A stretch of DNA of 64,000 bases from Escherichia coli (GTDB lineage: Bacteria > Pseudomonadota > Gammaproteobacteria > Enterobacterales > Enterobacteriaceae). The DNA lies in assembly GCF_024298765.1 (NCBI RefSeq), contig NZ_CP101210.1; one strand, written 5' to 3'. A program made the position numbers and the translations under genes. Below, one piece after another: positions 842 to 53,528 of this stretch. Every line of letters begins with the position of its first letter. The first letter of the stretch is position 1. The notes beneath the pieces were generated by a model. It worked only from the letters and a program-made list of their open reading frames with translations, made no database searches and was not told where the DNA came from.

Positions 842-2329
842 TTAAATCACCTCTTCGATAACCCACACGCTGACGCTGCCGCCGTTGCAAAAGAAGGTCG
901 CTTCGCCGTTTTCTTCGGTCACTACGCTCTCTTGCCGGTTCCCCAGAAAATCACGCCAGGTTTTATTGCCGTAATTCTCTCCCAGATGAATGGTTTTTTC
1001 GCCATCATCCCCGTTCGACATGACCACCACGCAGCCGGGATATTCGTCGGTGCCACTGCGGCTAAAGGCAATGCAGTTCGGATGGTCGAAAAATAACGTC
1101 TGTACACCGTGGGCGAAACGCTGACGGGCGAGAATTAACTCATCAAGCTGTTCGATTATTGGCATATCTATCGGATAGGTTTGCCCGTCACCACCGACAT
1201 CTTCGTAATGTGCACCGTAGAGGTCCGGATAGAACACCGAAGGAACGCCATTTTCCCGCAACAAAATTAAGGCATACGCCAGCGGTTTAAACCACGGTTC
1301 GACCGGTGCTTCGAGGGCTTGCAACGGTTGGGTGTCGTGGTTGGCAACGAGGGTTACGGCGTGAAAAGGATCGGCTTCCACCAGCGTCCCAGTGAAGATC
1401 TGCGTCATGTCGTAGTCGCGACCCATGCGCGATGCTTCATGGAATTTCATCTGCAGCGGCGCATCAAACAGCATGGTTTTGCCTTCCACCTGATCAATAT
1501 ACGTTTGCAGTTTATCGACTTCATGCGACCAGTATTCAGCCACAATAAACAGCGGCTTTGGCGCAACTTCCTGTACGTGTTCGATCCACTCTTTATAAAA
1601 CCATGCCGGAATATGTTTGACCGCATCAAGACGAAAGCCGTCGCATTGCGTTTGTTCCATCACCCAGCGCGCCCAGTATTTAATCTCTTCCGTCACGGCA
1701 TGATTGCGAAAATCGATATTCTCACCCATCAGATAATCGAAATTACCGAGTTCATCATCAACCTGATCGTTCCAGCCTTCTCCGGTATAGTCGTTAACAA
1801 TTTTAAAAATGCCATCTTCATCAGGGTTTTCGATATGGTCGATACCGCTAAAACATTTGAAATCCCAGATAAACTGCGAGTATTGCCCGGCACGCGCGGG
1901 GAAGGTGTAACGCGTCCAGCCTTCGCACTCAATGATTTCTTCGTCAATTTGCGTACGGTCATCAGCATTTACACGTTGCACGCGAATAGCTTCTTTTTCA
2001 TCCGCGCCCATTTTGTGGTTGACTACCACGTCCAGCAGCACCGCAATGTCATTACGTTTCAGGGCGTCAATGGCGGCCAGCAGTTGTGCTTTATCGCCAT
2101 ATTTAGTAGGGATGCTGCCTTTCTGATCAAACTCGCCTAAATCAAATAAATCATAGGAGTCGTAGCCGACCGAGTACCCGCCCGATGCGCCTTTATAGGC
2201 GGGCGGCAACCAGACCATATTGATACCAATATCATTAAAACCGTCGGCGCGCTCGGCCAGTTCAGGCCAGAGCTTACCGCCTTCCGGGTAATACCAGTGA
2301 AAACATTGTAACAGCGTGGGATTACGCAT
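842..2329 (-). CDS. amyA: Cytoplasmic alpha-amylase
   Basis: 495-aa ORF with glycoside hydrolase family 13 motifs ([15 protein letters not shown]); next to fliT as in K-12. Confidence 0.9.
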
Positions 2330-2406
2330 TCTTCGACTCCATTCAAGGGGAACATTAGAAGCGTAGCCGTAATCAGATTATTCGCGAGCCATTGGCTCTT
2401 TAAGAT

Positions 2407-2772
2407 TCAAAAGAGGTTATCCTGCGGAGCCAGCACAAAGCCACCCTGATCGCCATAGGCACTTAACACCGATTTTTGCACCGATGACTGACCGACCAGT
2501 TTCGCCAGTTCATCCATCCGAATCTGTAATAACTGCTTTACCTTGCTTTCGTTGTCGAGAATCAGGCGCAGCATCGGGCGGAGCTGCTCCTGCATCGTGG
2601 TGGACGGGGCAACCTCTTCAGTCAGGTGTGCGATCTCCTGCACCGCATTCACATACGCCATTTCGCTGGCGATGAGTTCGTCCCATTGTTCTTCTGTCGC
2701 CAGGCGTAACATGAGCTGACTTTTTTCGACGAGTTGTTGCCAGGCGAAATACAAATGCGGTGCATTGTTCAT
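2407..2772 (-). CDS. fliT: Flagellar export chaperone and anti-FlhDC factor FliT
   Basis: 121-aa ORF directly downstream of fliS in the fliDST operon. Confidence 0.85.
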
Positions 2773-3182
2773 CAGTCTGGGTCCTGAATCAAAGAAGGGG
2801 AGAGTAAAGACTCTTTCCAGGCATCGGCAATATTGCGCATTAATGCTTCCACTTCTTCGACTGCGGAGACATCGTTGCGTAAATTGGCTTGCAGCAAGCG
2901 CCTGACCATATAGCTATAAAGAGCAATCAAGTTTTGGGTTAGTTCGTCTTTGCTCTCTTCATCAAGACTCACCCGCAGCCCGTTCTCAATGATGTTGATC
3001 GCTTTTGACAAAGAGACGCCTTTGCCTTGCTGATTGTTGTCCTGCATAAACAGGCGCGCTCTAACCAGTGCGCTCAGCACTCCATCAAATAGCATGGTGA
3101 CCAGCTGTTGCTGGCTGGCGCTCATTACGGCGCTTTCGACGCCAATTTGTGCATAGGCCTGGGTGCCTTTTGCCGCGTACAT
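2772..3182 (-). CDS. fliS: Flagellin-specific chaperone FliS
   Basis: 136-aa ORF, fliDST operon context. Confidence 0.9.
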
Positions 3183-3197
3183 AGTCTCTCCTGAAGA

Positions 3198-4613
3198 TTA
3201 TTTCGAGTTGCTATTTGAGGTGTCGAACTGCTGTGTCAGATAGCTACTAGTGGAGTTCAGCGAGTTCATTAACACATCTAATTGGGTGAACTGGGCTTTA
3301 TAGCGCGTCATTAAGGTATCGATACGTTCACTGGCTGCGTTGTACTGGTCGGTCAAATTATTCAGCGTTTTGCTGACGCCATCTTTTGCTGCCTGGATTA
3401 TCCCGGTGGAAGAGAGCCAACTGGTCAGGTTGTTACTAATGCCGGTGGTTACCCCAGTACTTTTGCCGTCACCTATAAACATTTCACCGATACCAGCGGC
3501 ATCATTTTTTAGCGCCGTTTGCAGTTTGTCGGTCGCGATTTCCAGCTTGCCGGTACTGGCATCGCTGGTAATGCCAATCTGTGCCAGCGTTTTATAGTTT
3601 GAACTGCTGTGAGTATTGGCGAGCAAGGTTTTAAGCTGAGTCTGGATGGTACGCAGTGTGGAGTCACCGAGTAATGCGCCATTACTGGAGTCCTGACTTT
3701 CAGCTCCGGCATCGACAGCGGTGTATTTGGTTAAGCTGCTGAATGTATCCTGCAATGTGTTATAGGCATCCACCCACGCTTTAACCGCATTTTCAGCTTT
3801 GGATGTGTCTTTACTGATGGTCAGTGTCTGATTACCGGTGGTGACGTCATTCAGGTTGAGGGTGATATCTTCCAGTGAGTCGCTGATAGTGTTACTGCTG
3901 TTTTCAATCTCAACGTTATTGACTGTCAGTTTGGCGTTTTGCGCGGTGACGCTTTCAATCATGCCATTGCTGCTATCACCCGGCGTTCCGTTGTAACCCA
4001 TAAAACTTTCCAGGGCGCTGTCGCCGCTGACGCTAAGTTTCATAGCGTTATTGCTGCCCGTATCGTTAGCGGTGATGGACAGACGATATTCGCCGTTTCC
4101 CACATTGATGATACTGGCGCTGACACCAGCTTTGGCGTTGTTAATGGCATCGCGAATGCCGGAAAGTGACGAGTTACCCGCGCTGATATCAATCGTGACC
4201 GGATCTTTACCGCCGCCTTGTTGGATGGTCAGTACGCTATCGCTGGTGGCGATGGCGGCTTTACTGTCTTTTTGACTATTTTTTGTTGTCAGCGTCTGTG
4301 CCTGCGCCAGTTGGCTAACGCTAATGGTGTATTTCCCAGCAATCGCGCTGCCCGTGGTGGTGGCGCTGAAAGCCGATGAACTGCTGGTGGTTGAGGTGGC
4401 GGTAAATAAATCGGCTTTATTCAGTGCTGTGTTGGCTGTCTGGAAACTCTCTAGTGCACTTTTCAGCGTCCCGTAGGCGCTCAGTTTCGCGGTGTAAGAG
4501 CTTTGCTGTTTTGATATCGGCGTCAGGGTAGATTTTTCTGCCGCCTCCAGACTGTCAAGGATGCTGCTTAAGTCCAGCCCCGACCCAACCCCAAGCGTTG
4601 AAATACTAGCCAT
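3198..4613 (-). CDS. fliD: Flagellar filament capping protein FliD
   Basis: 471-aa ORF, Ser/Thr-rich, conserved N- and C-termini, divergent from fliC. Confidence 0.9.
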   Translation of the reverse strand: MASISTLGVGSGLDLSSILDSLEAAEKSTLTPISKQQSSYTAKLSAYGTLKSALESFQTANTALNKADLFTATSTTSSSSAFSATTTGSAIAGKYTISVSQLAQAQTLTTKNSQKDSKAAIATSDSVLTIQQGGGKDPVTIDISAGNSSLSGIRDAINNAKAGVSASIINVGNGEYRLSITANDTGSNNAMKLSVSGDSALESFMGYNGTPGDSSNGMIESVTAQNAKLTVNNVEIENSSNTISDSLEDITLNLNDVTTGNQTLTISKDTSKAENAVKAWVDAYNTLQDTFSSLTKYTAVDAGAESQDSSNGALLGDSTLRTIQTQLKTLLANTHSSSNYKTLAQIGITSDASTGKLEIATDKLQTALKNDAAGIGEMFIGDGKSTGVTTGISNNLTSWLSSTGIIQAAKDGVSKTLNNLTDQYNAASERIDTLMTRYKAQFTQLDVLMNSLNSTSSYLTQQFDTSNSNSK

Positions 4614-4657
4614 ATAGTTTCCTTAATCATGCGACGTGTATAGAACGAATACCGGGG

Positions 4658-4684
4658 TTATCGGCGTAAGCGGGGTAAAGTTTA
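4658..4684 (-). promoter_or_regulatory. Sigma-28 (FliA) class III promoter for fliDST
   Basis: On the minus strand TAAA-N15-GCCGATAA, matching the sigma-28 consensus, upstream of fliD. Confidence 0.5.
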
Positions 4685-4757
4685 CGATTTATTTTTTGCC
4701 TTAATGGCACGAACAGCAACGAGGAAGGGGAGTATTTCGACCGCTAGAAAAAAATTC

Positions 4758-4784
4758 TAAAGGTTGTGAGTGACCAGACGATAA
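4758..4784 (+). promoter_or_regulatory. Sigma-28 (FliA) class III promoter for fliC
   Basis: TAAA (4758-4761), 15-nt spacer, GACGATAA (4777-4784), about 75 bp upstream of the fliC ATG. Confidence 0.5.
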
Positions 4785-4860
4785 CAGGGTTGACGGCGAC
4801 GAAGCCGAAGGGTGGAAGCCCAATACTTAAACCGTAGACTTGAAAACAGGAAAATGAATT

Positions 4861-5910
4861 ATGGCACAAGTCATTAATACCAACAGCCTCTCGCTGATCA
4901 CTCAGAACAACATCAACAAAAACCAGTCTGCGCTGTCGACTTCTATCGAGCGCCTCTCTTCTGGTCTGCGTATTAACAGCGCTAAAGATGACGCCGCGGG
5001 CCAGGCGATTGCTAACCGCTTTACTTCTAACATCAAAGGTCTGACTCAGGCCGCACGTAACGCCAACGACGGTATTTCTCTGGCGCAGACGGCTGAAGGC
5101 GCGCTGTCAGAGATTAACAACAACTTGCAGCGTATTCGTGAACTGACCGTTCAGGCCTCTACCGGCACGAACTCTGATTCCGACCTGTCTTCTATTCAGG
5201 ACGAAATCAAATCCCGTCTTGATGAAATTGACCGTGTATCTGGTCAGACCCAGTTCAACGGTGTGAACGTGCTGTCGAAAAACGATTCGATGAAGATTCA
5301 GATTGGTGCCAATGATAACCAGACGATCAGCATTGGCTTGCAACAAATCGACAGTACCACTTTGAATCTGAAAGGATTTACCGTGTCCGGCATGGCGGAT
5401 TTCAGCGCGGCGAAACTGACGGCTGCTGATGGTACAGCAATTGCTGCTGCGGATGTCAAGGATGCTGGGGGTAAACAAGTCAATTTACTGTCTTACACTG
5501 ACACCGCGTCTAACAGTACTAAATATGCGGTCGTTGATTCTGCAACCGGTAAATACATGGAAGCCACTGTAGTCATTACCGGTACGGCGGCGGCGGTAAC
5601 TGTTGGTGCAGCGGAAGTGGCGGGAGCCGCTACAGCCGATCCGTTAAAAGCACTGGATGCCGCAATCGCTAAAGTCGACAAATTCCGCTCCTCCCTCGGT
5701 GCCGTTCAAAACCGTCTGGATTCTGCGGTCACCAACCTGAACAACACCACCACCAACCTGTCTGAAGCGCAGTCCCGTATTCAGGACGCCGACTATGCGA
5801 CCGAAGTGTCCAACATGTCGAAAGCGCAGATTATCCAGCAGGCGGGCAACTCCGTGCTGTCTAAAGCCAACCAGGTACCGCAGCAAGTTCTGTCTCTGTT
5901 ACAAGGCTAA
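4861..5910 (+). CDS. fliC: Flagellin (short central variable domain, 349 aa)
   Basis: Conserved flagellin N-terminus (MAQVINTNSLSLITQNNINKNQSALSTSIERLSSGLRINSAKDDAAGQAIANRFT) and C-terminus (NRLDSAVTNL...QVPQQVLSLLQG). Confidence 0.9.
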   Translation: MAQVINTNSLSLITQNNINKNQSALSTSIERLSSGLRINSAKDDAAGQAIANRFTSNIKGLTQAARNANDGISLAQTAEGALSEINNNLQRIRELTVQASTGTNSDSDLSSIQDEIKSRLDEIDRVSGQTQFNGVNVLSKNDSMKIQIGANDNQTISIGLQQIDSTTLNLKGFTVSGMADFSAAKLTAADGTAIAAADVKDAGGKQVNLLSYTDTASNSTKYAVVDSATGKYMEATVVITGTAAAVTVGAAEVAGAATADPLKALDAAIAKVDKFRSSLGAVQNRLDSAVTNLNNTTTNLSEAQSRIQDADYATEVSNMSKAQIIQQAGNSVLSKANQVPQQVLSLLQG

Positions 5911-15744: not shown

Positions 15745-15820
<76 letters not shown>

Positions 15821-15874
15821 GTTTAAAAGACATCGGCGTCAAGCGGATGTCTGGCTGAAAGGCCTGAAGAATTT

Positions 15875-15948
15875 GGCGCGTTAACAAAGCGGTTATGTAG
15901 CGGATTGCAAATCCGTCTAGTCCGGTTCGACTCCGGAACGCGCCTCCA
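15875..15948 (+). tRNA. cysT: tRNA-Cys (GCA)
   Basis: 74-nt sequence ggcgcgttaacaaagcggtt...cgcctcca; anticodon loop attGCAaat. Confidence 0.9.
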
Positions 15949-15960
15949 CTTTCTTCCCGA

Positions 15961-16047
15961 GCCCGGATGGTGGAATCGGTAGACACAAGGGATTTAAAAT
16001 CCCTCGGCGTTCGCGCTGTGCGGGTTCAAGTCCCGCTCCGGGTACCA
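15961..16047 (+). tRNA. leuZ: tRNA-Leu, long variable arm; integration target of the prophage
   Basis: 87-nt sequence gcccggatggtggaatcggtagac...tccgggtacca; its 3' half is duplicated at 53405-53459. Confidence 0.9.
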
Positions 16048-16116
16048 TGGGAAAGATAAGAATAAAATCAAAGCAATAAGCAGTGTCGTGAAACCACCTT
16101 CGGGTGGTTTTTTTGT
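15993..16116 (+). repeat. attL: 124-bp direct repeat (3' half of leuZ plus downstream terminator)
   Basis: Identical by eye to 53405-53528; includes the leuZ terminator hairpin gaaaccaccttcgggtggttttttt. Confidence 0.85.
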
Positions 16117-16588
16117 ATTTGTATTTTGAGCAATGGCGGTAGAGTGGCGGTGGTGTGGCGATATGCAGAAACAATAATGGTGGTGCACGTGCTGTTTAAG
16201 CTCTAAGGATGAAGCAGAATTCTCCTGCAGCTCCTCCGTATTTCGCATAGTGAACCAAGACTTCGGTTAAACAAAATTTTTCTGGGATTTTTCCACTCGA
16301 CTTCATTTTTCCTCCAGTCATCCACCAAAGGTACCTGCGCTAATCTATCTTTTTTAATCTGACAACATCCTGAGAAAAGGCAAATTCGTCAGATTTACTG
16401 TTTTTTCTGCTGCTTCGAATGCCGATGTCTGCAGTACTGATAAGAGCTCTATCTCTTTGATATAGATCTTTTTTTTGATGAATTGCTCGACATATTATCG
16501 TTATGACACCTTCTTGTTAAAGGTGTTGTACTCCACATCTCGATTTTATGATGTGGGTTATGATTGGTTAGTAATAGAGTGTATCGGT

Positions 16589-16870
16589 ATGCGATGTGGT
16601 TTATTAATGGCAATATGCTTTTGTTTGGTATCTTTTAGTGGGTATGCAGCAACAGGAAAGTCTGATGTTCAGATCAAGAAAGAAATAATTAAAGAATCCA
16701 TTGAATCATATCCAGGCAATTGTGCGTGTCCTTATAATCATGCAAGGAATGGTAGTAGGTGTGGTGGACGCAGTGCATATAGCCGTACTGGAGGGTATGA
16801 TGTGGTATGTTATGAGAGTGATGTTACTGATGAAATGATCCGGCAATGGAAGCAGGAGAATGCTGATTAA
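16589..16870 (+). CDS. Hypothetical secreted cysteine-rich small protein (prophage moron)
   Basis: Signal peptide MRCGLLMAICFCLVSFSGYA followed by a Cys-rich mature region (GNCACPYNH...RCGG...VVCYESD); AT-rich. ORF finder extends it to 16475. Confidence 0.4.
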   Translation: MRCGLLMAICFCLVSFSGYAATGKSDVQIKKEIIKESIESYPGNCACPYNHARNGSRCGGRSAYSRTGGYDVVCYESDVTDEMIRQWKQENAD

Positions 16871-17061
16871 TTACTTTTGACTGGTTTGTTTTGCGAGCAT
16901 TATGTGTGTTGTTAACGGTACCCTAGCTAAGTGAGAGTTCCAAAATAAAACCCGCAGTTTTTACGCTGCGGGTTTTATTGTTTCTGTCGATGGGATAGGG
17001 TGCCACTTCGGCCAGCCTTGGCAACCGATTGACGGGGGATTACTCCCCCGTCGCGGTTTCC

Positions 17062-17202
17062 TTACTGCTTACACTGTAAGAACGCCGCAAACTCCGCTCC
17101 CCAGAAGCTCATCCGTATTTCACACAGCGAACCGTGCAGCATCCAGATGATGAGGATTACCGTCACGCAGAACGTGATGGCCGTAAGCGATTTTTGCGAC
17201 AT
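17062..17202 (-). CDS. Hok/Gef-family type I toxin-like small membrane peptide
   Basis: 46-aa translation MSQKSLTAITFCVTVILIIWMLHGSLCEIRMSFWGAEFAAFLQCKQ: TM helix followed by SLCEIR and E(F/V)AAF, the Hok family pattern. Confidence 0.55.
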   Translation of the reverse strand: MSQKSLTAITFCVTVILIIWMLHGSLCEIRMSFWGAEFAAFLQCKQ

Positions 17203-17383
17203 AGCGCTTGCTCCTTTTTAGGGGAGGCGCTAACCTATCACTTGCTAAGGTTAGATGGTTAGGGCCTCGGTTAAACAGAGATGTTTTCCGGGGCCTTTCC
17301 ACATCTGGCCTTCGGGCATACCCTCCGACCATCAGCCGAAAGGCACCCGCGCGTAATCTATCGTTTTTTTGTTGCTTCGGCAA
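17120..17383 (-). CDS. Mok-like overlapping reading frame (translational coupling frame for the hok-like gene)
   Basis: 87-aa ORF overlapping the hok-like gene in another frame, as in hok/mok/sok loci. Confidence 0.3.
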   Translation of the reverse strand: MPKQQKNDRLRAGAFRLMVGGYARRPDVERPRKTSLFNRGPNHLTLASDRLAPPLKRSKRYVAKIAYGHHVLRDGNPHHLDAARFAV

Positions 17384-17392
17384 TTCTGCTCG

Positions 17393-17653
17393 TTAATTCT
17401 GAGGTAAAGGCAAACTCATCTGATTGTTTCCCCTGTGTGACGTTGGCAGTTCATGCCACGGGATACCTTCTGAAGATCGAACGCCTGAGGTGTGTTTCGA
17501 TGTGAATTTATGGAAAGCTTCCAGTGTTGAGAAGCATACGCCGCATTCCAGGTTGTTACACTGGTAATACTTTTGTCGGACGGTGTTTGAATCATTTTCC
17601 GGACGACTTGTGCGGATACGGGCAGATGCGCCACAAAGCGGACAACGGAACAT
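17393..17653 (-). CDS. ogr: Ogr/Delta-family zinc-finger late-gene transcription activator
   Basis: MFRCPLCGASARIRTSRP...YYQCNNLECGVCFSTLE: Cys4 pattern and N-terminus resemble P2 Ogr. Confidence 0.8.
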   Translation of the reverse strand: MFRCPLCGASARIRTSRPENDSNTVRQKYYQCNNLECGVCFSTLEAFHKFTSKHTSGVRSSEGIPWHELPTSHRGNNQMSLPLPQN

Positions 17654-17896
17654 AGCAACCTCCCTTTAGGTGGTGCTATTCTAAACTTCATCAATGCAGA
17701 TTCCAACTCCTTCCCACTTTAAGCGAAGGATGGTGATAAAGTCAGAATATGTTAGATGAAGTCTAAACGGGCGATAAGTTTTCCAATATTTGAATAACAA
17801 CGTGGCAGGATTTTTGTTTATCAATTATCTTACACTTTTAAGTGTAATAAATTTGTTAGTGATGACAATATTGTGAGAGGAGATTATCAATTGAAG

Positions 17897-19360
17897 ATGG
17901 CAAAAAATAACAATGATAAAATGCGGGCAAAGTATAGGCCGTTCATAAATATATGGGAACATCTTCCTTCTGAGTTCAATGAACTCATCAAGACGTTAAT
18001 GGTGCTGATACGGCAAGGGGAAAATGTGGGAGCTCAGCAAAGGGAGCTTGATTCCATCGAAAACTTCAAACACCTGTTAAGTGGATGGAAGCGGGCGCAA
18101 AGGATCATAGCTGATGAACTCATTATCAGGCTTTCTCAAATCAAGGATCTGGAGTTAGAAAAGAATTGTGCCCATTCAAAAAAGGACTATGAAACAAAGA
18201 AGAAGTGTATACGCAATATTGAAAGGACTAGACTAGAAATTAGGATTTTACGTAGGTGCATTGATTCAATTGTATGGGCGATATTCCGCAATGAACACTC
18301 GTCTATAAGACGGTTACCTATAAATAGAAATACTGACAATCTGACAATATTTAATATACATGATTCAATGGTGGTAGCAGATGAAATCAATGCTGATCCG
18401 ATGGCTATAGCTGTTATCACTGATATTACTACGTTTGTACATACTGGTGATTTACTTGCGTTAATACCTCAGCAAGGCATAACTTTAATTGAAATAAAAA
18501 GTGGTAAGAAAAATATAGAGTTTTCAAAGGCGGCTATGTTCTCAGTGCAAAGTAAATGTCTTCATTTTGATGAGATTTATAGAAAAGACCTTGATAAAAA
18601 TGACTTGAAACACTATGACAGAGCTAAGCGTCAACTTAAAAGAGCTCAAAATGTGATAGATGTCATTGAAACTGGTAAGGGATTTGATAACTTTTTTCAG
18701 TCTCAAGTAACAATTCATGACAGAGATTTTTGTCCCGATTTTTATACAGATAAGATTATTGAGCTTTGGTATGAGATATATAACGGTAAAACTTGGGCGA
18801 TTACTGACATTAATGATTGTTTATTCCTTGGGGCATATATTAATTCTAATATGGGTTTTTGCGGTTTTAATGGATGGATGGAGGTATCTAGAATATCGGG
18901 GAGAGTGTTTAATATTCTTGATAGCTTTTCAGATGCTTTATCACGTCCATTTTTTAGTTTGAACCTACCTGATAAATTGCTTCTGGATATCATTAATGGC
19001 AATCTAATTGTTGTGCTGTGTTTCGATCATCGTCGTTTCGTAGAAAGAGCAAATAAAAAATACCCCGGGATTTATGAGTTATTGGACTTTCCATCTCCGA
19101 AGATTAATCCTATGAGTATGCTTTCCATCAATGGGAAGGGGGTAGTTTCTAGTGTTGATGGACAGAGTGTTTTTATTGGAAATGGTTACGAAACACGGAT
19201 TATTTTTGATCAGCAATATCCAGATAGTCTGATTAAGTGGTCATACCATATGAGTGATCTCAAAAAAAATATTGATAAAAAAAAGCGTAAAATGAAAAAG
19301 GAAACGCAAAGAAAAATAAAAGAGAAAAGAAAACGTAGCAGAAAACAATGCTTAAACTAA
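17897..19360 (+). CDS. Hypothetical 487-aa protein, AT-rich orphan moron between ogr and gpD (candidate accessory or defence gene)
   Basis: Long ORF in a very AT-rich island; RBS GAGAGGA upstream of ATG 17897 (ORF finder starts at GTG 17873); possible PD-(D/E)xK-like motif GD...EIK; Lys/Arg-rich C-terminus. Confidence 0.55.
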   Translation: MAKNNNDKMRAKYRPFINIWEHLPSEFNELIKTLMVLIRQGENVGAQQRELDSIENFKHLLSGWKRAQRIIADELIIRLSQIKDLELEKNCAHSKKDYETKKKCIRNIERTRLEIRILRRCIDSIVWAIFRNEHSSIRRLPINRNTDNLTIFNIHDSMVVADEINADPMAIAVITDITTFVHTGDLLALIPQQGITLIEIKSGKKNIEFSKAAMFSVQSKCLHFDEIYRKDLDKNDLKHYDRAKRQLKRAQNVIDVIETGKGFDNFFQSQVTIHDRDFCPDFYTDKIIELWYEIYNGKTWAITDINDCLFLGAYINSNMGFCGFNGWMEVSRISGRVFNILDSFSDALSRPFFSLNLPDKLLLDIINGNLIVVLCFDHRRFVERANKKYPGIYELLDFPSPKINPMSMLSINGKGVVSSVDGQSVFIGNGYETRIIFDQQYPDSLIKWSYHMSDLKKNIDKKKRKMKKETQRKIKEKRKRSRKQCLN

Positions 19361-39650: not shown

Positions 39651-41402
39651 ATGATTCAGGACGCTTTTGTGCGCCAGCGTGCGCGACAACTTTACTGGCA
39701 GGGTTATCCGCCCGCAGAAATATCACGTCTGATGGGAATAAACCCGAACACGATTTATGCGTGGAAAAAACGCGACCAGTGGGATGAAACGCCACCCGTG
39801 CAGCGTGTCACGCAATCCATTGATGCGCGCCTCATCCAGCTTACTGAAAAACAGAATAAAACAGGCGGTGACTTCAAGGAAATAGACCTGCTGACACGGC
39901 AGCTTAAAAAGCTGCATGATGGCCAGCCGGATGTGATTGCCGCAGGAAAGAAAGGCCGGGCGAAAAAACTCAAAAATCATTTCACGCCGGAACAGATTGC
40001 CGCACTGCGGGAAAAAATCATCAGCAGGCTGGAGTGGCATCAGCGGGGCTGGTTTGACTCCCTGACCCTTTGCAGGGAAGCCGGGATACGTAACAGGATG
40101 ATCCTGAAATCCCGACAGATTGGGGCGACCTGGTATTTTGCACAGGAAGCACTGCTGATGGCGCTGCGTGACGATGTGGTGCAACCTTATCAGCGTAACC
40201 AGATTTTTTTGTCTGCGTCGCGTCGTCAGGCGTTCCAGTTTAAAAGCATTATTCAGAAGGCCGCGGCTGAAGTTGATGTGGAGCTGAAAGGGGGCGATAA
40301 AATCATCCTCTCCAACGGCGCAGAGCTGCATTTTCTCGGCACTTCTGCTGCGTCGGCACAGTCCTATACGGGCAATTTTTATTTTGATGAATTCTTCTGG
40401 GTCAGTCGCTTTGCTGAACTGCGCAAGGTGGCTGGCGCTATGGCAACCCTCAGCGGACTGCGGCGCACCTACTTCTCCACGCCATCCACCGAAACGCACG
40501 AGGCATACGCCTACTGGAACGGCGACCGCTGGAACGAGAAAAAGGCCACGCATAAACGCCAGCGTTTTTCTGTGGACTGGAAAACGCTGCATAACGGGCT
40601 TATCTGCCCTGACCGGACGTGGCGGCAAATTGTCACGCTGGAAGATGTGGTTAATCACGGCTGGAAACACACCGATATTGATGAAATTCGTGATGAAAAC
40701 ACCGAAGACGAGTTCCTCAATCTCTATATGTGTGAGTTTGTCCGCGAAGGGGAATCGGCATTTAACCTGAATATCCTGATTGGCTGTGGTGTTGACGGAT
40801 ACGACGACTGGAAAGACTGGAAACCTTTTGCTCCCCGCCCGATGGGGAATCGCCCGGTATGGATTGGGTATGACGCAAATGGCAGCAGTGGCAACGGCGA
40901 CAGCGGCGCTGTGTCCGTGGTGGTTCCTCCGGCTGTTCCTGGTGGCCGTTTTCGAACGGTGGAGACGCGACGCGTTCAGGGGCTGGAGTTTGAAGAACAG
41001 GCCAGAGTCATTGAAGAGTTCACGTGTCGCTACAACGTGGAACACATCGGCATTGATGTGACGGGCGGGAACGGGGAGGCTGTTTATCAGATAGTGAAAC
41101 GGTTTTTCCCTGCCGCTATTCCGTACACCTTCACGCTGTCATCAAAACGGTCGCTGGTACTGAAAATGCTGCAAATAATGCGTGCAGGGCGGTGGGAATA
41201 CGATCGCGCCGAACGCGAGCTGGTCGCGGCCTTTAACGCCGTGCGTAAGGTGAAAACACCGGGCGGCTTTATCACTTACGAAACGGACCGCGCGAGGGGG
41301 ATCAGCCACGGCGACCTTGCGTGGGCAACCATGCTTGCTGTCATTAACGAACCAATTGGCGGCGAAGGAGAAAACGAGCGTTTCACGGTTATGGAGTTCT
41401 GA
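39651..41402 (+). CDS. Terminase large (ATPase) subunit gpP
   Basis: 583 aa with conserved N-terminus RARQLYWQGYPPAEISRLMG. Confidence 0.9.
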   Translation: MIQDAFVRQRARQLYWQGYPPAEISRLMGINPNTIYAWKKRDQWDETPPVQRVTQSIDARLIQLTEKQNKTGGDFKEIDLLTRQLKKLHDGQPDVIAAGKKGRAKKLKNHFTPEQIAALREKIISRLEWHQRGWFDSLTLCREAGIRNRMILKSRQIGATWYFAQEALLMALRDDVVQPYQRNQIFLSASRRQAFQFKSIIQKAAAEVDVELKGGDKIILSNGAELHFLGTSAASAQSYTGNFYFDEFFWVSRFAELRKVAGAMATLSGLRRTYFSTPSTETHEAYAYWNGDRWNEKKATHKRQRFSVDWKTLHNGLICPDRTWRQIVTLEDVVNHGWKHTDIDEIRDENTEDEFLNLYMCEFVREGESAFNLNILIGCGVDGYDDWKDWKPFAPRPMGNRPVWIGYDANGSSGNGDSGAVSVVVPPAVPGGRFRTVETRRVQGLEFEEQARVIEEFTCRYNVEHIGIDVTGGNGEAVYQIVKRFFPAAIPYTFTLSSKRSLVLKMLQIMRAGRWEYDRAERELVAAFNAVRKVKTPGGFITYETDRARGISHGDLAWATMLAVINEPIGGEGENERFTVMEF

Positions 41403-42448
41403 TGAGCAGAAAAAATAAAAAAGTGCGCATGAGTTCACGCATTGATCTCGCTGATGCGCTCAGGAAAGAATCATCGCTCAGTGCATTCACATTTGATGGT
41501 CCTTATCGCCTGACCGGGCATGACCTGCTGGACAATATGTACTGTGCTGATAACGGGCGGTGGTATGAAACCCCGGTGGACTGGTACGGTCTGGCAAGAG
41601 CCGCCCGGCAAACGTCCTGGCATCAGTCTGCGCTTTACTTTAAGCGCAATGTATTACTCGGTTGCTACATCCCGCACCCGCTGCTTTCCCGGCAGGATTT
41701 CTCGGCGCTGGCGCTGGACTGGTTTGTGTTCGGTAACGCATTCCTTGAGCTTCGGAGCAATATGCTCGGCGAACCGCTTAAATTACGGCACGCCCTGGCG
41801 AAATACATGCGACGCGGAAGCGATCTTGAATCATGGTGGTATGTGCAGGATGGCAAGGACGCGTTCCAGTTTCGCCCTGGCAAAGTGTGCCACCTGATGA
41901 ATCCGGATATTAACCAGGAAATCTACGGCATGCCGGAATATCTTGGCGCATTACTCTCGGCCAGCCTTTCTCATTCGGCGGACATGTTCAGAAAACTGTA
42001 CTACGACAACGGATCCCACGCCGGGTGCATCATCTACATCGGTGCAGCGCAGGTAAACCGCGAAAGCATGGACTCCCTGAAAGAAACGTTACAGGGTGCG
42101 CGTGGTGGTGGTGCATTTAAAAACGTGCTCATTCATGCGCCCAACGGGGGCAAAGAAGGGGTGCAAATTTTGCCGTTCCAGCAGATCACCGCAAAAGATG
42201 AGTTCATGAATGTTAAGGCGGCATCCCGTGATGATGTGCTGGCTGCGCACCGCGTTCCGCCGCAACTGATGGGGGCGATGCCGGGCGAAAAAAGTGCGTT
42301 TGGTGATGTGGAGAAGGCCGCGCGGGTTTACGCAATTAACGAGCTGATGCCCGTCATGGAGGCCATGAAGCACATCAATGACTGGCTTGGCGAAGAGGTG
42401 ATCCGCTTTAACCCTTACGCACTGTTAGACACCCAGCCCACATCCTGA
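41402..42448 (+). CDS. Portal protein gpQ
   Basis: 348 aa overlapping the P stop (ATGA), as in the P2 P-Q operon. Confidence 0.9.
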   Translation: MSRKNKKVRMSSRIDLADALRKESSLSAFTFDGPYRLTGHDLLDNMYCADNGRWYETPVDWYGLARAARQTSWHQSALYFKRNVLLGCYIPHPLLSRQDFSALALDWFVFGNAFLELRSNMLGEPLKLRHALAKYMRRGSDLESWWYVQDGKDAFQFRPGKVCHLMNPDINQEIYGMPEYLGALLSASLSHSADMFRKLYYDNGSHAGCIIYIGAAQVNRESMDSLKETLQGARGGGAFKNVLIHAPNGGKEGVQILPFQQITAKDEFMNVKAASRDDVLAAHRVPPQLMGAMPGEKSAFGDVEKAARVYAINELMPVMEAMKHINDWLGEEVIRFNPYALLDTQPTS

Positions 42449-42870
42449 CGCGCTTCGCTTGTCTGCTGCTTCGCCGGGGCATAAAAAATTTATGCCCCGA
42501 CTCTCCAGCTCCTGTATCAGTCAGATAATTTCACGACGCTTTCCTGCTGATTGCCATCATCGACAGTCAGACTCTTACGCAATCCCACCGCGTTGACTGC
42601 ATGTTCTCGCCGTCTCAGTGCGATTTTGACGGCCTTACCTTTCACCCCATCAAATCAAAAGCCCTCACGTCTTTTTCACGCTCAGCGTGAGAAATACAGC
42701 CATTCTGTTGTGTCGCTGCGACATCGTTCAGGGGATGCTATTTACCCCCTGAAACGCGGGCTGTTCCCCCGTCACCTGCGCGCAGAAAAAATGCGTTTTT
42801 TTGTGCACGCACGGATCCTTGACGGATCCAGCCACCATGCGGGCCGGAAGGGCAAAAAGTCGTTCAAAAA

Positions 42871-42909
42871 AATTGTGCAAATTTGTGCACTATTGTGCAT
42901 TTGTATAGT
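42871..42909 (+). promoter_or_regulatory. Iterated TTGTGCA repeats and candidate -10 (TATAGT) upstream of the cargo operon
   Basis: aaTTGTGCAaatTTGTGCActaTTGTGCAtttgTATAGTg: three copies at about 10-11 bp spacing followed by a -10-like hexamer. Confidence 0.4.
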
Positions 42910-42978
42910 GAAAAAAATATAGCAGAAAGTATACTTAGCGCCTTGTGGGCTACGTTAACTTTGCAGGAACATTTGGAA

Positions 42979-44358
42979 ATGAAAAAAATCAATAAAGAAG
43001 ATTCTAAAAGAACCTTTTTACGTGGATGGTTGCGATTTCTTCGTAGCGTTGAGAGAGCTAAGAAAAAAAAGCCTGCGCAAGAGAAAAATGGTAGTCTTCG
43101 TTTTTCCGATGAAACAACTCCTGTCCAAAACCAAGTCGCTACGTTCATTGAAAATATATCGATTATAAAAGAGTATGACTCATCAATTCTTCGTCGTGAC
43201 GCAGAGAAGATATTAATACCTAAATATTTTGACTTATATGACAATCCAGAGAAATCTCTGCTATTTATTAGTGCAGCCACAAAATTAATTGCAAGAGGTA
43301 AATGGAAATCATATATTTTTGATTACAAGAAAAACAAAAAACACTGTCTTGGTCTTGAGTGTCTATTAGGTGTTGCTCTTACAGCAGCAAGGCAAAGTAA
43401 TATAAATTTCAAAGATACGATGATTCAGATTAATGGTATCTACCCTAAAGATGAACAGTATCTTGAAATTATCAGGGATGTCGGGCTTGTAAAAGAGATT
43501 AGTAATGCTGCACCAGGTAAAGTTCTGGACTCTACTGAAGCATCGAAAAAAGCGAATCCGAAGAAACGAATCTTCTCTGCTGATAGTATCGGAAAGGAGA
43601 ATGCTTCTGCCTTTGCCCATGACAGAAAAAATGTCACTGCTGAAAAATTTACCGCATACATAAACGAATGCTTAAATGATCATAATTTAAAACTTGTACA
43701 TGAGGCAGAAAAGCATTTAACTTCCTGCATGGGGGAACTCCTTGATAATGCGGAGCGGCATTGTGGGTTAGAGCAACGCCCACGCTGGTATTTGAGAGGT
43801 TTTGTTAATAATAACGTACGAAACCCCATATGTGAGTTGGCTGTTTTCAATTTTGGGAAAACTATCAGCGAAACTTTTGATAATTTACCTGAGGATCATT
43901 TTTCATTAAGTCAACAAGTTAATCCATACATAAATAAGCATATTAAGAAAAAGGGTATGTTTAAGGAAGGATTAACAACAGTAGCGGCCTTGCAAGGGCG
44001 GGTGAGTTGTAAAAACGAGAAAGAAACTGACAGTTCTGGCACCGGAACAATTGAATTATTGAAGTTATTTCAAGATATGCATGATAATCTTAAAAAAATG
44101 GGAAGAGATATTAAAGGTGGGATAAAAATGACTTTAATATCTGGTAGTACTCATATTAACTTTGATGGATCATATAAATTAAAGCAAAGGTTGGTTAATG
44201 ACGAGGAAAGTGACATTTTTACTTACCCTTTTAATGATGTAGGGCTTGAATCTGAACCGGATCGCAACTATCTTAAGCGTATGAAGGATGCTCGATTTCC
44301 TGGAGTTATGATCAATATTCGTTTTCCTCTACCAGAAAACGCCACCCAGCGAACTTGA
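42979..44358 (+). CDS. Hypothetical protein with C-terminal GHKL-type (histidine kinase/SpoIIAB-like) ATPase domain; candidate defence gene A
   Basis: N-box-like ELLDNAERH, G-box-like DSSGTGTIELL, terminal GG...G...FPLP typical of HATPase_c; AT-rich; RBS AGGAAC before ATG 42979 (ORF finder starts at 42883). Confidence 0.55.
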   Translation: MKKINKEDSKRTFLRGWLRFLRSVERAKKKKPAQEKNGSLRFSDETTPVQNQVATFIENISIIKEYDSSILRRDAEKILIPKYFDLYDNPEKSLLFISAATKLIARGKWKSYIFDYKKNKKHCLGLECLLGVALTAARQSNINFKDTMIQINGIYPKDEQYLEIIRDVGLVKEISNAAPGKVLDSTEASKKANPKKRIFSADSIGKENASAFAHDRKNVTAEKFTAYINECLNDHNLKLVHEAEKHLTSCMGELLDNAERHCGLEQRPRWYLRGFVNNNVRNPICELAVFNFGKTISETFDNLPEDHFSLSQQVNPYINKHIKKKGMFKEGLTTVAALQGRVSCKNEKETDSSGTGTIELLKLFQDMHDNLKKMGRDIKGGIKMTLISGSTHINFDGSYKLKQRLVNDEESDIFTYPFNDVGLESEPDRNYLKRMKDARFPGVMINIRFPLPENATQRT

Positions 44359-44368
44359 GGACAGGTAC

Positions 44369-44713
44369 ATGAAAATGGCTGACATCACCATAGATTTCAA
44401 TAAGTTAGTAAAAGATAGTAACAAGAAACTTTTTGCTGGACGTTCTAATGGGCGCCAGGCCTATGATTACTTTAATATAGGGAAATTTTGCACAACCAGT
44501 AATGATAGATTATATCTATTGATCCCCAAGGGAATTGTTGTATCAAGCTCATACTTTCTAGGTATGCTTGAAACGGTTTTGCCGAAATTTTCTTCGCCTA
44601 GCGAATTTTATAGTCGCACTGTACTTGATGGTCGTGAATATAAAGAAGGTATGCTTTCTGAATTAGATAGAGCTGTAAGGAGAGGCTTACATAAAAATGT
44701 TCCCTTCTTTTAA
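44369..44713 (+). CDS. Small protein, possibly STAS/anti-sigma-antagonist-like; candidate defence gene B
   Basis: 114 aa immediately after the ATPase gene; IVVSSSYFLGMLE resembles the STAS core; very tentative. Confidence 0.4.
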   Translation: MKMADITIDFNKLVKDSNKKLFAGRSNGRQAYDYFNIGKFCTTSNDRLYLLIPKGIVVSSSYFLGMLETVLPKFSSPSEFYSRTVLDGREYKEGMLSELDRAVRRGLHKNVPFF

Positions 44714-45506
44714 AAATATTTTTCAAATCAAAATGACAGCGCTGTCTGTCATTTTTTTTATATTCCCCGCAGCTTGCTCTGTGACAGATTTTTCCAATAA
44801 AGAAAACATTGAATGTAATGAGTCACTTTATCCAAACACGCCTTTTTATATTTCCGATTCAGGACTTAGTGGTATATCATCACCGTTTTTGTTATCCGGA
44901 AACCCGAATGATGGCTTGATGTTTTGTGAAAAGGCAAACGACACCTTTCATAAGTTATCTCTGGCAAGGGATAACAAAAAAGATTTATTTACTAATTATT
45001 TCAAAGATGTTCCAAATTCCTATGATATATATAATATTGTAAAGGTTCCGGAAAATGGTCCAGAGTGGATTTCTATTGGCATCTCTTTATTTGCTTTAGT
45101 TTCATCCTTTGTTATTCCTTGTGTTCAACATAGAAAAGAACGTAAAGAAGCTATTAATGAAGGGTATTGGGTAAGAGAAGTAATTATGCCTAAAATTAAT
45201 GGGTTGGCATTCGATGTTGTGCAAAGTTTTAAAAACTCCATGGCATTATCAGAAGAGGAGTTTCTTAGTGTATTCAGTAATACTCTTTTACCAAAACTAG
45301 GAGAGTTACGGGATTCATTATATTTGTTTAATAGTTTTCCAGAATTAAATGCAGATATTGAAAATCTAGAAAGTATTTGTGACTCCTTGGAGGAAGAAGT
45401 TTCCAATCATATAGACTCGCCTAATGAAATAAGAATTTCTGATATATCAATGTTTCATTCCAAATTAATACAGAAATTAATTTTACTTCATAAGAAGATA
45501 GGTTGA
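44697..45506 (+). CDS. Membrane-anchored protein; candidate defence gene C (possible effector)
   Basis: Overlaps gene B by 17 nt; hydrophobic N-terminus (MTALSVIFFIFPAACS) and a central TM helix (WISIGISLFALVSSFVIPCV). Confidence 0.45.
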   Translation: MFPSFKNIFQIKMTALSVIFFIFPAACSVTDFSNKENIECNESLYPNTPFYISDSGLSGISSPFLLSGNPNDGLMFCEKANDTFHKLSLARDNKKDLFTNYFKDVPNSYDIYNIVKVPENGPEWISIGISLFALVSSFVIPCVQHRKERKEAINEGYWVREVIMPKINGLAFDVVQSFKNSMALSEEEFLSVFSNTLLPKLGELRDSLYLFNSFPELNADIENLESICDSLEEEVSNHIDSPNEIRISDISMFHSKLIQKLILLHKKIG

Positions 45507-45551: not shown

Positions 45552-48317
45552 CTATCGTGTTCGATGCAATAAACTGATTTTTTTGCGAGCATGTTTAGTG
45601 GTTTCACTGATTCTCTGTGCGTGCTCTGCGTCGCGGATGGCGCGCAGCATGTCAGAAAGTACGGTAACGGGTGTTTTCATGGTGTTCTGGTCTTGCTGAA
45701 GTGTGGATGCCAGGCGTGCGGCGGCTTCAGGGTCTGATGCCTCTAGTTGTTCCAGATAGCTGGCGACCGGGTTATGGCGGATCTCCGTGCTGCTTACGCC
45801 GTGATTACGACTCAGGCGTTGCCAGAGCTGCGTGATTCGGCTGTCCGGGCGGGTATCCTGTTTGCGTACAATTTCAAATCCCTGCGGTGCAATGATGCTG
45901 CCGCCAACGTACAGACTGCCGCCTCGTAACAGGTGCTGCATCTGCTGTTCACCGATATGCAGGCCGAGAGATTCAGCAGACTCCCGCCATTCTTTAGCGA
46001 GTAACTCGTGGTTATCAGGCAAAGGCTGTGGCTGTTTGCGGCTCTGTGTCCAGTTCTGCATTTCATCACTGCTGTTTTTTGCCTGTTTGTCACGCAGCGA
46101 ACGCATCAGTGCCCGGCGTTCGTGCCGTTTCAGTGAGCGCATCCATTCATTCACGTCAACGCCTTCAGGAAGCCGCGGCCACGGTGCTGGCCGTTCTTCC
46201 GGCTGTTCTGTCCCGTTGTTGTCCGTTTCCTGTACACGGGGACAGTTATTGCCACGAGTCCAAGGGGCGGCAGGGCCGCCCTGAAGGTCAAAACCATTTT
46301 CGCGGGCGCTGTCTTCCGTTTCCGGTTTACGTCTTACCAGTTTCCAGTTATCCGGATGCGTGCACACACGGGAGGATTCCCCGATGAGTGGTGACCAGAT
46401 CCCGTAAATCTGTACGCTCTGTTCGCCGTAATCATTCAGCTCATCTGCGAGGTCGTAGGCGGTGCGAATCAGGTAGTCTTTGCGTGGAACAAGTACGCCG
46501 CCCTGTTTTTCAATGTAGGTGGCAAAACACCCGGCATCGGCGGCAGCGAGTACCGCATCCATTGCGTCATCTTTCAGTCGTTGCGGGCCTTCCGGGTTGC
46601 GTGCCATCTGGCTGGCAAGGCGGCGCAGTTCACGCCACACCTGACGGGAGGGGATGCCAAAGAACTGGAACTGGCGGACCCGATGAAGGCGCGCCCAGCC
46701 GATGGCGCGCTCCACACTCTCGGCCATTGATTTTCCGGTTTCGTGGTCAACGCGTGGCTTGCCCGTTTTCGGGTCGATGCCATCCACGGCGCGGCTGTCC
46801 AGGTTCTTTCCGATGTAGGTCGCGATATAGCTGGTTGGTGTGCCTTTTGAGCCGTCGACATACTCCGCCTTAAAGCGCGGAGTAATATCATTGCCCAGCT
46901 CGTGGCGGTCTTCCTGAATGGCAATATCGCGGGTGATGGCCACGATGCTGTCGATTTCTTCCGGATGAGCAAAGACCATCATATGCCAGTGCACGGTGCC
47001 GTCATGGTGAGGCTCCACCGTGCGGATGCCATACCAGCGAAGACCGTCGCGGTTCAGTTTTTTGCGGACCGCCGCAAAAAACGTGTTAACCAGGTAATCG
47101 CTGGAGTCGCGCATGGTGGCCCCGTTCCATTTGGGATTCGGATGACCGTTCTCTGTTGTGGCGTGGTATTTTGACGGGCAGGTGACAGTCAGAAACACCG
47201 CTTTGTCGCCACGGGCTTCGGCCAGAAGTTCCAGCCCCTTCATGGTGGCCATCATTTCTGCCTTACGGTGAACCGGGTTACTTACTCCCGCGTAATACAC
47301 CGTCTCGAGATCAATCGTGAACCCGTCTTCGTTTTCCAGCATGAAACTTTTCAGGAAATCGCGTGTTTTCTCGCGCTGTGCGCGAAACTCGCTTAACGCG
47401 TCCTGGCTCAAATAGGGCGATGTTTTTCTGGAAACCAGACAGGCGGCGCGGAGTTGTTCTTCTCTCCACTCGCAACGTAACAGCCACAGTTTGCGTTTCC
47501 ACCATTCCGCACAGGTCAGGCGAAGGATTGCGCCCGGCAGCAGTTCTGTGTCCGGTTCGTTCCTCCGGTCTTTGTCTGTTGTCAGTGCGTCATAATGCGG
47601 AGGCATGGCGTGCAAGTGTAACGCCATGCGGGCCAGCATCTGATACGCCTTCAGCGTTACATCCATGGTCAGCTCGCCATCGGTCGCGCCAAAACCATCG
47701 CAGAGTTTTTCGAAGGTGCTGCTGAACATCGCCGCCGTCATGGTGGCCAGCGTCTGTATCTGGTGTTTGTTGAGTTGCGGCAGGTAAAGCAAATCGTCCA
47801 GGCGTTCACGTCCGGCAAGGGACCGATAACCCGGTGTCAGCCAACGGCTGTCGGTGCGGTCCAGACGTACGAATATTTTGCGCAGGGTTCCGCGCGCGTA
47901 GCGTTCAGCCTGCCAGCTCTTTTTGCCTTTCTGACGATCGGATTCCTGTTTTTTGCGCAGGAAAGAGAGGTGGCGGCTCAGAGGTTCACGCAGATAAACG
48001 GGAAGCACCTTCAGTGTGGCAAAAGCACGGGCCACCGGGTCTTGTTCTGTTGCCTGACGCTTGCTGATGATGCTTTGTGCCAGCTTTTCACGCTGTCCGG
48101 CTTCCTCAAGGGATGCCATGAGTTTTTTACCCACGGTGGATTGTGCGAAAAAGGCTTCCTCCTTCGCTTCCTGTTCTTTCCGGGCCTTTTTGTCCGCCTC
48201 AAGGTAGTAACGGATGGCGCGTTGCAGCTCGGTTTCAGTTTCCTGCCTGCGCTCCGTAAATCTGTCCGGATCAATGGCTGGCCGTGGTTCATTCCAGCTC
48301 CATGCAAACTCACTCAT
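45552..48317 (-). CDS. Replication initiation protein gpA (rolling-circle endonuclease), with extended C-terminus
   Basis: About 921 aa; start MSEFAWSWNEPRP overlaps the upstream ORF stop (ATGA); longer than the ~760 aa I recall for P2 A. Confidence 0.8.
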   Translation of the reverse strand: MSEFAWSWNEPRPAIDPDRFTERRQETETELQRAIRYYLEADKKARKEQEAKEEAFFAQSTVGKKLMASLEEAGQREKLAQSIISKRQATEQDPVARAFATLKVLPVYLREPLSRHLSFLRKKQESDRQKGKKSWQAERYARGTLRKIFVRLDRTDSRWLTPGYRSLAGRERLDDLLYLPQLNKHQIQTLATMTAAMFSSTFEKLCDGFGATDGELTMDVTLKAYQMLARMALHLHAMPPHYDALTTDKDRRNEPDTELLPGAILRLTCAEWWKRKLWLLRCEWREEQLRAACLVSRKTSPYLSQDALSEFRAQREKTRDFLKSFMLENEDGFTIDLETVYYAGVSNPVHRKAEMMATMKGLELLAEARGDKAVFLTVTCPSKYHATTENGHPNPKWNGATMRDSSDYLVNTFFAAVRKKLNRDGLRWYGIRTVEPHHDGTVHWHMMVFAHPEEIDSIVAITRDIAIQEDRHELGNDITPRFKAEYVDGSKGTPTSYIATYIGKNLDSRAVDGIDPKTGKPRVDHETGKSMAESVERAIGWARLHRVRQFQFFGIPSRQVWRELRRLASQMARNPEGPQRLKDDAMDAVLAAADAGCFATYIEKQGGVLVPRKDYLIRTAYDLADELNDYGEQSVQIYGIWSPLIGESSRVCTHPDNWKLVRRKPETEDSARENGFDLQGGPAAPWTRGNNCPRVQETDNNGTEQPEERPAPWPRLPEGVDVNEWMRSLKRHERRALMRSLRDKQAKNSSDEMQNWTQSRKQPQPLPDNHELLAKEWRESAESLGLHIGEQQMQHLLRGGSLYVGGSIIAPQGFEIVRKQDTRPDSRITQLWQRLSRNHGVSSTEIRHNPVASYLEQLEASDPEAAARLASTLQQDQNTMKTPVTVLSDMLRAIRDAEHAQRISETTKHARKKISLLHRTR

Positions 48318-53404: not shown

Positions 53405-53528
53405 TTTAAAATCCCTCGGCGTTCGCGCTGTGCGGGTTCAAGTCCCGCTCCGGGTACCATGGGAAAGATAAGAATAAAATCAAAGCAATAAGCAGTGTCG
53501 TGAAACCACCTTCGGGTGGTTTTTTTGT
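53405..53528 (+). repeat. attR: 124-bp direct repeat (partial 3' leuZ copy plus terminator)
   Basis: Identical by eye to 15993-16116. Confidence 0.85.

Follow-up and report, generated by a model that had tools for sequence, protein, structure and literature searches.

An AT-rich cargo gene near the end of a P2-like prophage of Escherichia coli, with a product from a widespread, uncharacterised protein family

The ORF at 16589-16870, on the plus strand of the analysed window (64,000 nucleotides of the E. coli contig NZ_CP101210.1), is a genuine gene under purifying selection, and is variable prophage cargo (a moron), not a part of the phage core. Its product is a pre-protein for which export by Sec is directly supported by the layout of the N-terminus, and which belongs to a family of proteins named only as hypothetical. 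As to its role, the reading preferred here, held tentatively and at somewhat less than an even chance, is that the small pre-protein is non-essential cargo, giving rise to a periplasmic, disulfide-stapled module that would bind a conserved polymer of the envelope.

The gene and its place in the prophage

An earlier note had described a small AT-rich ORF located between att and a hok-like locus, and these points hold: the frame exists, with 93 aa read from an ATG, the GC content is 0.36-0.40 across 16200-16950 versus 0.50-0.57 on both sides (the tRNA/pgsA flank and the hok, ogr and tail genes), and both landmarks are found where expected (Table 1). RefSeq lists the 93-aa form as the hypothetical protein WP_071589622.1. 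A reading of 131 aa, from a TTG start at 16475, was rejected as a gene-caller extension of the same ORF, because the extension is not found in homologues outside E. coli and the signal peptide would be buried within it.

A word-index search returned 181 homologues of the 93-aa protein, with E-values from 1e-57 to 1e-21. Twelve distinct E. coli-type alleles were compared: against the window allele dN/dS ranges from 0.07 to 0.18, at dS values up to 0.2, and the variable sites fall at codon positions 1, 2 and 3 in the numbers 3, 4 and 19. The ORF is present in 623 of the 5426 complete E. coli genomes, and its frame is intact in at least 580, degraded prophages among them; carriers include EHEC O157:H7, O111 and O121, as well as commensal and animal isolates. 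All residues that are invariant in the family are kept in the aligned protein.

The part of the window that precedes the prophage contains fliC, fliA, tcy genes, sdiA, uvrY, uvrC and pgsA, followed by tRNA-Gly, tRNA-Cys and tRNA-Leu(taa) at 15745-16047, and the P2-like prophage lies directly after tRNA-Leu. On its ogr side the gene order is hok, ogr, an ORF of 495 aa, gpD, and then genes for the tail sheath and tube; capsid genes, the portal gene gpQ (41402-42448), the replication gene gpA (45552-48344) and the integrase gene are found farther along. The empty site was rebuilt in silico by deleting 16117-53528, and the resulting leuZ-yecA junction was searched in the 5426 E. coli genomes: 3792 of them show it without interruption and at 100% identity. 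The duplication of att and the empty site together delimit a P2-like element of 37.4 kb, with the gene about 470 bp inside its ogr-proximal end, and the same two findings led to the rejection of an islet in the chromosome outside the prophage. The gene had also been called attL-proximal; it is indeed next to a prophage end, but 'attL' applies in the orientation of the window only, this end being ogr-proximal in the P2 convention and opposite the integrase.

Table 1. Features of the prophage and of the gene under study (coordinates refer to the window)
Feature	Coordinates	Strand	Basis and remarks
tRNA-Leu(taa), leuZ, integration target	15961-16047	+	ARAGORN; RefSeq annotation of an identical locus
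Left att copy, 124-nt perfect direct repeat	15993-16116		Covers the 3' half of tRNA-Leu and its terminator
Degenerate hok/sok-like remnant, just upstream of the gene	16196-16420	-	Direct reading, no formal alignment
Gene under study	16589-16870	+	93-aa pre-protein, member of PHROG 27544
Predicted signal peptide, residues 1-20, MRCGLLMAICFCLVSFSGYA	16589-16648	+	n/h/c reading, Kyte-Doolittle scan
Mature domain, residues 21-93: two helices around a basic loop SYPGNCACPYNHARNGSRCGGRSAYSRTGGYDVVCY, predicted to be Cys-stapled	16649-16867	+	Alignments, AlphaFold2 model
Cys codons	16721-16723, 16727-16729, 16760-16762, 16808-16810	+	
G+C-rich hairpin with A- and T-runs, bidirectional terminator-like	16944-16979		74 nt past the stop codon of the gene
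hok/gef-family toxin gene, intact	17062-17202	-	phrog_251 'MokW-like host killing', E=2.5e-23; RefSeq Hok/Gef family
ogr/delta-like late-gene activator, marking the ogr end	17393-17653	-	phrog_603; RefSeq annotation
ORFs of the gpQ-gpA cassette	42883-44358, 44369-44713, 44697-45506	+	No Pfam or PADLOC hit
Phage integrase, opposite prophage end	52297-53298	+	Pfam Int_N E=5e-32, Phage_integrase E=2.5e-22
Right att copy, the same 124 nt; yecA comes next	53405-53528		Repeat search

From 16942 rightwards, in a stretch that takes in hok and ogr, the window shares 94% identity with phage P88 (Xuanwuvirus, Peduoviridae), and the pairwise alignment places the start of this homology precisely at the terminator hairpin. 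On the left side of it, the same att-to-hok slot of P88 holds an unrelated gene (gp53) for a DUF4177-like protein of 80 aa, on the same strand and with the same terminator. In Salmonella P2-like prophages a homologue of 67% identity occupies the equivalent slot, the gene order being pgsA, tRNAs, ORF, hok, hok, ogr, gpD, with both hok copies intact, and prophage predictions in IMG/VR carry the gene close to a contig end. None of 50,697 phage records was matched when the E. coli protein was searched by tblastn. In E. coli O157:H7 the gene is intact at the equivalent site of a decayed prophage, despite the loss of hok, ogr and part of gpD through IS30. At the locus of strain ATCC 43894 (L182, 9332-10875) the IS30 deletion spans hok, ogr and most of gpD of the P2-like prophage at leuZ, and the gene is intact 20 bp upstream.

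The proposal of a prophage-end moron is therefore borne out by a position inside an att-bounded element, a distinct, AT-rich base composition, a terminator-like hairpin downstream, and the replacement of the slot in P88 by an unrelated gene. The P2-family morons old/tin, at the gpA-gpQ hotspot, are comparable in lying in a locus that is variable between otherwise collinear P2-like phages, and show no sequence kinship with the gene; anti-phage activity is in evidence for old/tin and not for the gene, and the att-proximal slot differs from the gpA-gpQ hotspot, i.e. the cos-proximal hotspot of P2 which has been shown experimentally to hold antiviral systems (PMC9122126).

Within the hok/sok-like remnant, the ORF 16203-16328 holds the Hok motif GSLCEIR, and the segment 16260-16420 is similar to the leader of the hok locus at 17062-17400, which is intact. 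The gene thus has hok-type sequence on either side, degenerate upstream and intact downstream, and cargo of the att-hok slot may be shuffled by recombination between the hok copies. The protein itself did not match the Hok/Gef profile. Upstream of the gene, no sigma-70 consensus of at least 9/12 was found on the plus strand, and a loosened sigma-70 search was likewise unconvincing; the P2 late-promoter box TGT-N12-ACA (Ogr-type) was not found in this region, and no block in common emerged when the upstream regions of E. coli and Salmonella were aligned. The Shine-Dalgarno sequence is weak.

Export signal, mature domain and family

The pre-protein begins with a charged n-region (M1-R2), followed by a hydrophobic core from C3 to F16 (CGLLMAICFCLVSF; best 10-aa Kyte-Doolittle mean 3.16) and by the c-region S-G-Y-A, with small residues at -3 (G) and -1 (A): this is the arrangement of a Sec/SPase I pre-protein, with a predicted SPase I site after A20, between MRCGLLMAICFCLVSFSGYA and ATGKSD. 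Of the assessable homologues, 108 out of 113 have a signal-peptide-like N-terminus, as do 74 of the 76 taken from species genomes; the signal sequences themselves are not conserved, while the n/h/c layout is. The Sec signal peptide claimed at the outset is confirmed by this reading of the sequence and by the shared layout. A lipoprotein (SPase II) reading was rejected, since no lipobox [LVI][ASTVI][GAS]C is present in the N-terminus: A-I stands before C10 and C-F before C12, and most homologues have no Cys there.

The mature part contains 4 Cys in 73 residues (C45, C47, C58 and C74), invariant or nearly so throughout the family; the designation 'Cys-rich' is supported by this conservation, but modest in terms of number. 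The consensus of the mature domain is SD-x-QIK-x2-II-x-ESIASYPGNCPCPYN-x-ARNGSRCGGRSAYSR-x-GGY-x-P-x-CY-x2-DVT-x-EM. Its conserved loop has a basic character, with R53, R57, R61 and R66, and contains many Asn, Ser, Tyr and Gly residues, a chemistry which would suit an anionic or carbohydrate ligand. The AlphaFold2 model is confident (pLDDT 89.8, pTM 0.77) and has no structural neighbour in the PDB; a sequence profile search of the PDB gave nothing below E=0.76, and Foldseek against the BFVD viral structures no match at E<=0.001.

The earlier note could not assign a family. A full-length match is provided by PHROG 27544 (E=1.6e-59, 199 bits), residues 13-93 of the protein aligning with positions 1-81 of the 81-position profile, but the family is itself uncharacterised, and its label carries neither a function nor a mechanism. 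The single Pfam-A hit, to Sclerostin, scored 16.3 bits, below the cut-off of 27; scans against NCBIfam and PADLOC-DB v2 returned 0 hits and 0 families, and a literature search on the motifs and accessions of the family found no relevant paper. All members are named 'hypothetical protein' in the databases.

An exhaustive profile search collected 2267 clusters (50% identity) at E<=1e-3, of which 1413 at E<=1e-10. Column identity averages 59-67%, an unusually high value for a family that spans alpha-, beta-, gamma-, delta- and epsilon-proteobacteria as well as cyanobacterial and melainabacterial MAGs; the family is abundant in environmental taxa (Geobacter relatives, Sphingomonas, Janthinobacterium, cyanobacterial MAGs). 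It is not phage-specific, being found on chromosomes, plasmids and prophages. Chromosomal copies with genus-level synteny occur in Acinetobacter, Klebsiella (next to hiuH), Pectobacterium, Kosakonia and Phytobacter. In 9 Acinetobacter species, the member lies directly downstream of the sulfate-activation genes cysD-cysN and is co-oriented with them (L117, L125, L138, L143, L148, L153, L162, L163 and L175, at about 2075-5200 in each). The plasmid copies amount to 115 PLSDB records, including 35 from Xanthomonas and 30 from Pantoea. TAL-effector genes adjoin the family gene on Xanthomonas plasmids, and in a Cobetia plasmid of 4.7 kb it is one of two cargo genes. Other copies are located in islands or in MobA-type elements.

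When the neighbouring genes were clustered and 149 flanking genes of 77 species were assigned to Pfam families, no neighbour in the 77 loci proved to be conserved beyond the genus, which suggests that the protein acts alone. The linkage to cysD-cysN, and the Tlde1 and PLD-nuclease neighbours described below, were discarded as too sparse to serve as functional clues. In Geomonas, Geomesophilobacter, Sphingomonas and Sphingobium, another small secreted protein is encoded directly upstream on the same strand (L105 4220-4546; L112 4615-4896; L124 4624-4920; L168 1814-2137). This partner, with the motif YTRKDGTYV...NWSTKGNVNP-x-TGK-x-GT, has no Pfam match; together with the family member it may form a recurrent exported pair.

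Domain architectures were read from the best 150 of the 2267 family matches. Among these are 53 longer relatives, with a bacterial SH3 domain (SH3_3) in 18, PG_binding_1 in 3, PG_binding_2 in 1 and a staphylococcal-nuclease domain (SNase) in 3, and about 49 of the 53, as tallied from the listing, have a hydrophobic N-terminus; tandem duplications of the domain were found in P0121, P0122, P0127 and P0145. A domain which is extracytoplasmic, tied to peptidoglycan-binding modules and tolerant of multimerisation is more readily understood as a binding module than as an enzyme. Fusions are a minority of the members, and indicate co-localisation with wall-binding domains, not wall binding by the domain itself.

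Mini-versions of 53 aa, made up of a signal peptide and GRCQHDSDTAADGSRCGGRSADSRPGG, are annotated in phages as 'transmembrane anchored protein' (phrog_14503), a name which rests on the hydrophobic N-terminus alone. They surfaced with the family consensus as query and not with the E. coli protein, and match the family core with an hhalign probability of 97% (E=3.7e-11 over 36 columns). Like the protein under study, they join a signal peptide to the core motif C-x10-DGSRCGGRSAxSRPGG and are encoded by an accessory gene of temperate phages; unlike it, they have 2 Cys instead of 4 and lack both flanking helices. The equivalents of C45 and C58 are kept, while C47 and the C-terminal part bearing C74 are missing, and this joint loss points to C45-C58 and C47-C74 as the probable disulfides. 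Uetakevirus-type temperate phages have mini-versions with the motif C-x10-DGSRCGGRSADSRPGG in their ant/arc immunity region, examples being gp43 of Escherichia phage TL-2011b (L180 3453-3614) and a gene of Klebsiella phage BUCT711 (L181 2956-3114).

Excalibur (PF05901), YHYH and DUF3761 (PF12587) are domains of the same kind, with about 50 aa and Cys residues behind a signal peptide, and like the present family they stand alone or are fused to SNase, SH3b or PG-binding modules. P0160 and P0164 appear, on reading and not by HMM, to combine the domain with Excalibur-like and YHYH-like segments. There is however no sequence relationship with any of the three, with 0 Pfam hits above threshold, and kinship with DUF3761 was rejected at an hhalign probability of 0.8% against a DUF3761 protein. 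Since the loop is not acidic, Ca2+ binding of the Excalibur type is unlikely. Small exported proteins of lysogenic conversion, periplasmic or in the outer membrane and expressed by prophages from genes near the prophage end or in a moron slot, include Glo of Vibrio phage K139, Bor and Lom of lambda, and the Cor/Llp lipoproteins. The protein under study differs from them in having no lipobox, no beta-barrel and no similarity to annotated families, and its family by far exceeds these phage-specific proteins in conservation and spread.

Proposed role and alternative explanations

According to the preferred reading, the pre-protein would be exported by Sec and cleaved after Ala20, leaving a mature protein of 73 residues. 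In the periplasm this would fold as two amphipathic helices clamping a basic loop, rich in Gly, Pro, Asn, Ser, Arg and Tyr and stapled by the two predicted disulfides. Its ligand would be a conserved, probably anionic polymer of the envelope or the extracellular space, with peptidoglycan as first candidate and DNA as second: the column identity kept across proteobacterial classes argues for a universal ligand such as these, and not for a fast-evolving target of an arms race. The module would be neither an enzyme nor a specific inhibitor of another protein. In the lysogen, it might decorate or shield the polymer, and the candidate benefits are a more robust envelope, or a hindrance to incoming DNA or to enzymes that degrade the wall. 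Lysogenic conversion, which the earlier note had raised, is a putative role. That it represents a new disulfide-stapled extracytoplasmic fold, used by mobile elements to coat or mask peptidoglycan or periplasmic or extracellular DNA, is a doubtful further step.

A role in superinfection exclusion, or against phages or competitors in general, through a block of phage DNA or the neutralisation of a nuclease, a phage lysozyme, a T6SS peptidoglycan effector or another wall-degrading enzyme, which would be an immunity-type function typical of such morons, is judged unlikely. No PADLOC family was matched, no neighbour recurs across genera, and the high conservation and genus-level chromosomal synteny are unlike those of immunity proteins in an arms race; such a role would nevertheless agree with the prophage-end site, with carriage on plasmids and prophages, with the SNase fusions, with the mini-proteins in a phage immunity region, and with the presence of Thoeris two genes off in sibling P2-like prophages. 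Homologues of Tlde1-domain T6SS effectors are nearby in 2 of the 77 loci, and small PLD-type nucleases in another count of 2 of 77, but the Tlde1 neighbours are not directly adjacent and co-oriented in the manner of effector-immunity pairs. An immunity protein of the Tlde1/Tldi1 type was rejected, the Tlde1 gene being divergent in L122 and about 1 kb upstream, with a gap, in L155.

The four Cys could also be metal ligands instead of forming disulfides. A periplasmic metal-binding protein, whose CxC...C...C arrangement chelates Zn, Cu or another thiophilic metal for buffering or resistance, is considered rather improbable. It is suggested by the four invariant Cys, including a CxC pair near prolines, by the plasmids of Xanthomonas and Pantoea, by the co-occurrence of Excalibur, a small metal-binding domain, in the relative P0160, as read from its sequence, and by the SNase fusions, SNase requiring a divalent cation. 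After Sec export, however, Cys residues in the oxidising periplasm normally become disulfide-bonded, and the concerted loss of C47 and C74 in the 2-Cys mini-versions fits disulfides, not a four-ligand site; conserved His, Met or acidic clusters are absent from the family, and metal-resistance genes do not recur among the neighbours.

A decaying or silent passenger, conserved by hitch-hiking with the prophage and unexpressed in this strain, is quite improbable: the low dN/dS of the E. coli alleles, the frame kept open even in degraded prophages and the retention of every family-invariant residue all speak against it, although no promoter is recognisable, the ribosome binding site is weak, the AT-rich DNA is likely silenced by H-NS, and the ORF sits between the hok remnant and the hok gene in a region which is clearly rearranged.

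A secreted virulence or host-interaction factor, i.e. a lysogenic-conversion toxin or an adhesin-like protein for animal or plant hosts, is highly improbable, because a Sec signal alone leads only to the periplasm in Gram-negatives, the family abounds in environmental non-pathogens, E. coli carriers span commensal and animal isolates, and no Pfam toxin or adhesin family is resembled, notwithstanding the signal peptide on a prophage moron, the presence in EHEC serotypes and the TAL-effector genes beside the Xanthomonas plasmid copies.

Other cargo of the prophage and significance

Two further loci of the prophage were noted. Between ogr and gpD, the 495-aa ORF (17873-19360, plus strand) has 32-41% GC and no Pfam, PHROG or PADLOC match. 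The same ogr-gpD slot in sibling P2-like prophages holds the two Thoeris genes, ThsA (SIR2_2/STALD) and ThsB (TIR), at 2095-4010 of L176, which makes the 495-aa ORF a candidate single-gene anti-phage defence. Between gpQ and gpA, a cassette at 42551-45506 on the plus strand comprises ORFs of 491, 114 and 269 aa; it occupies the cos-proximal hotspot mentioned above, and is a possible undescribed defence system.

As a feature of the prophage, the gene at 16589-16870 is an ordinary AT-rich moron, and it is the uncharacterised domain family which deserves attention: about 2300 clusters, with about 60% identity across classes and an export signal in nearly all members, lie outside Pfam and NCBIfam. 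In E. coli it is prophage-borne in 11% of the complete genomes, EHEC included, and it is also found on plasmids of plant pathogens. If the doubtful further step of a new fold that coats or masks an envelope polymer is true, the gene would represent a new type of moron, modifying the envelope or blocking the entry of DNA, and its domain a new module for binding the wall or DNA, which fusion proteins across Proteobacteria reuse alongside SH3b, PG-binding and nuclease domains. Identification of the ligand would annotate thousands of hypothetical envelope proteins, and could explain the repeated uptake of the domain by mobile elements.
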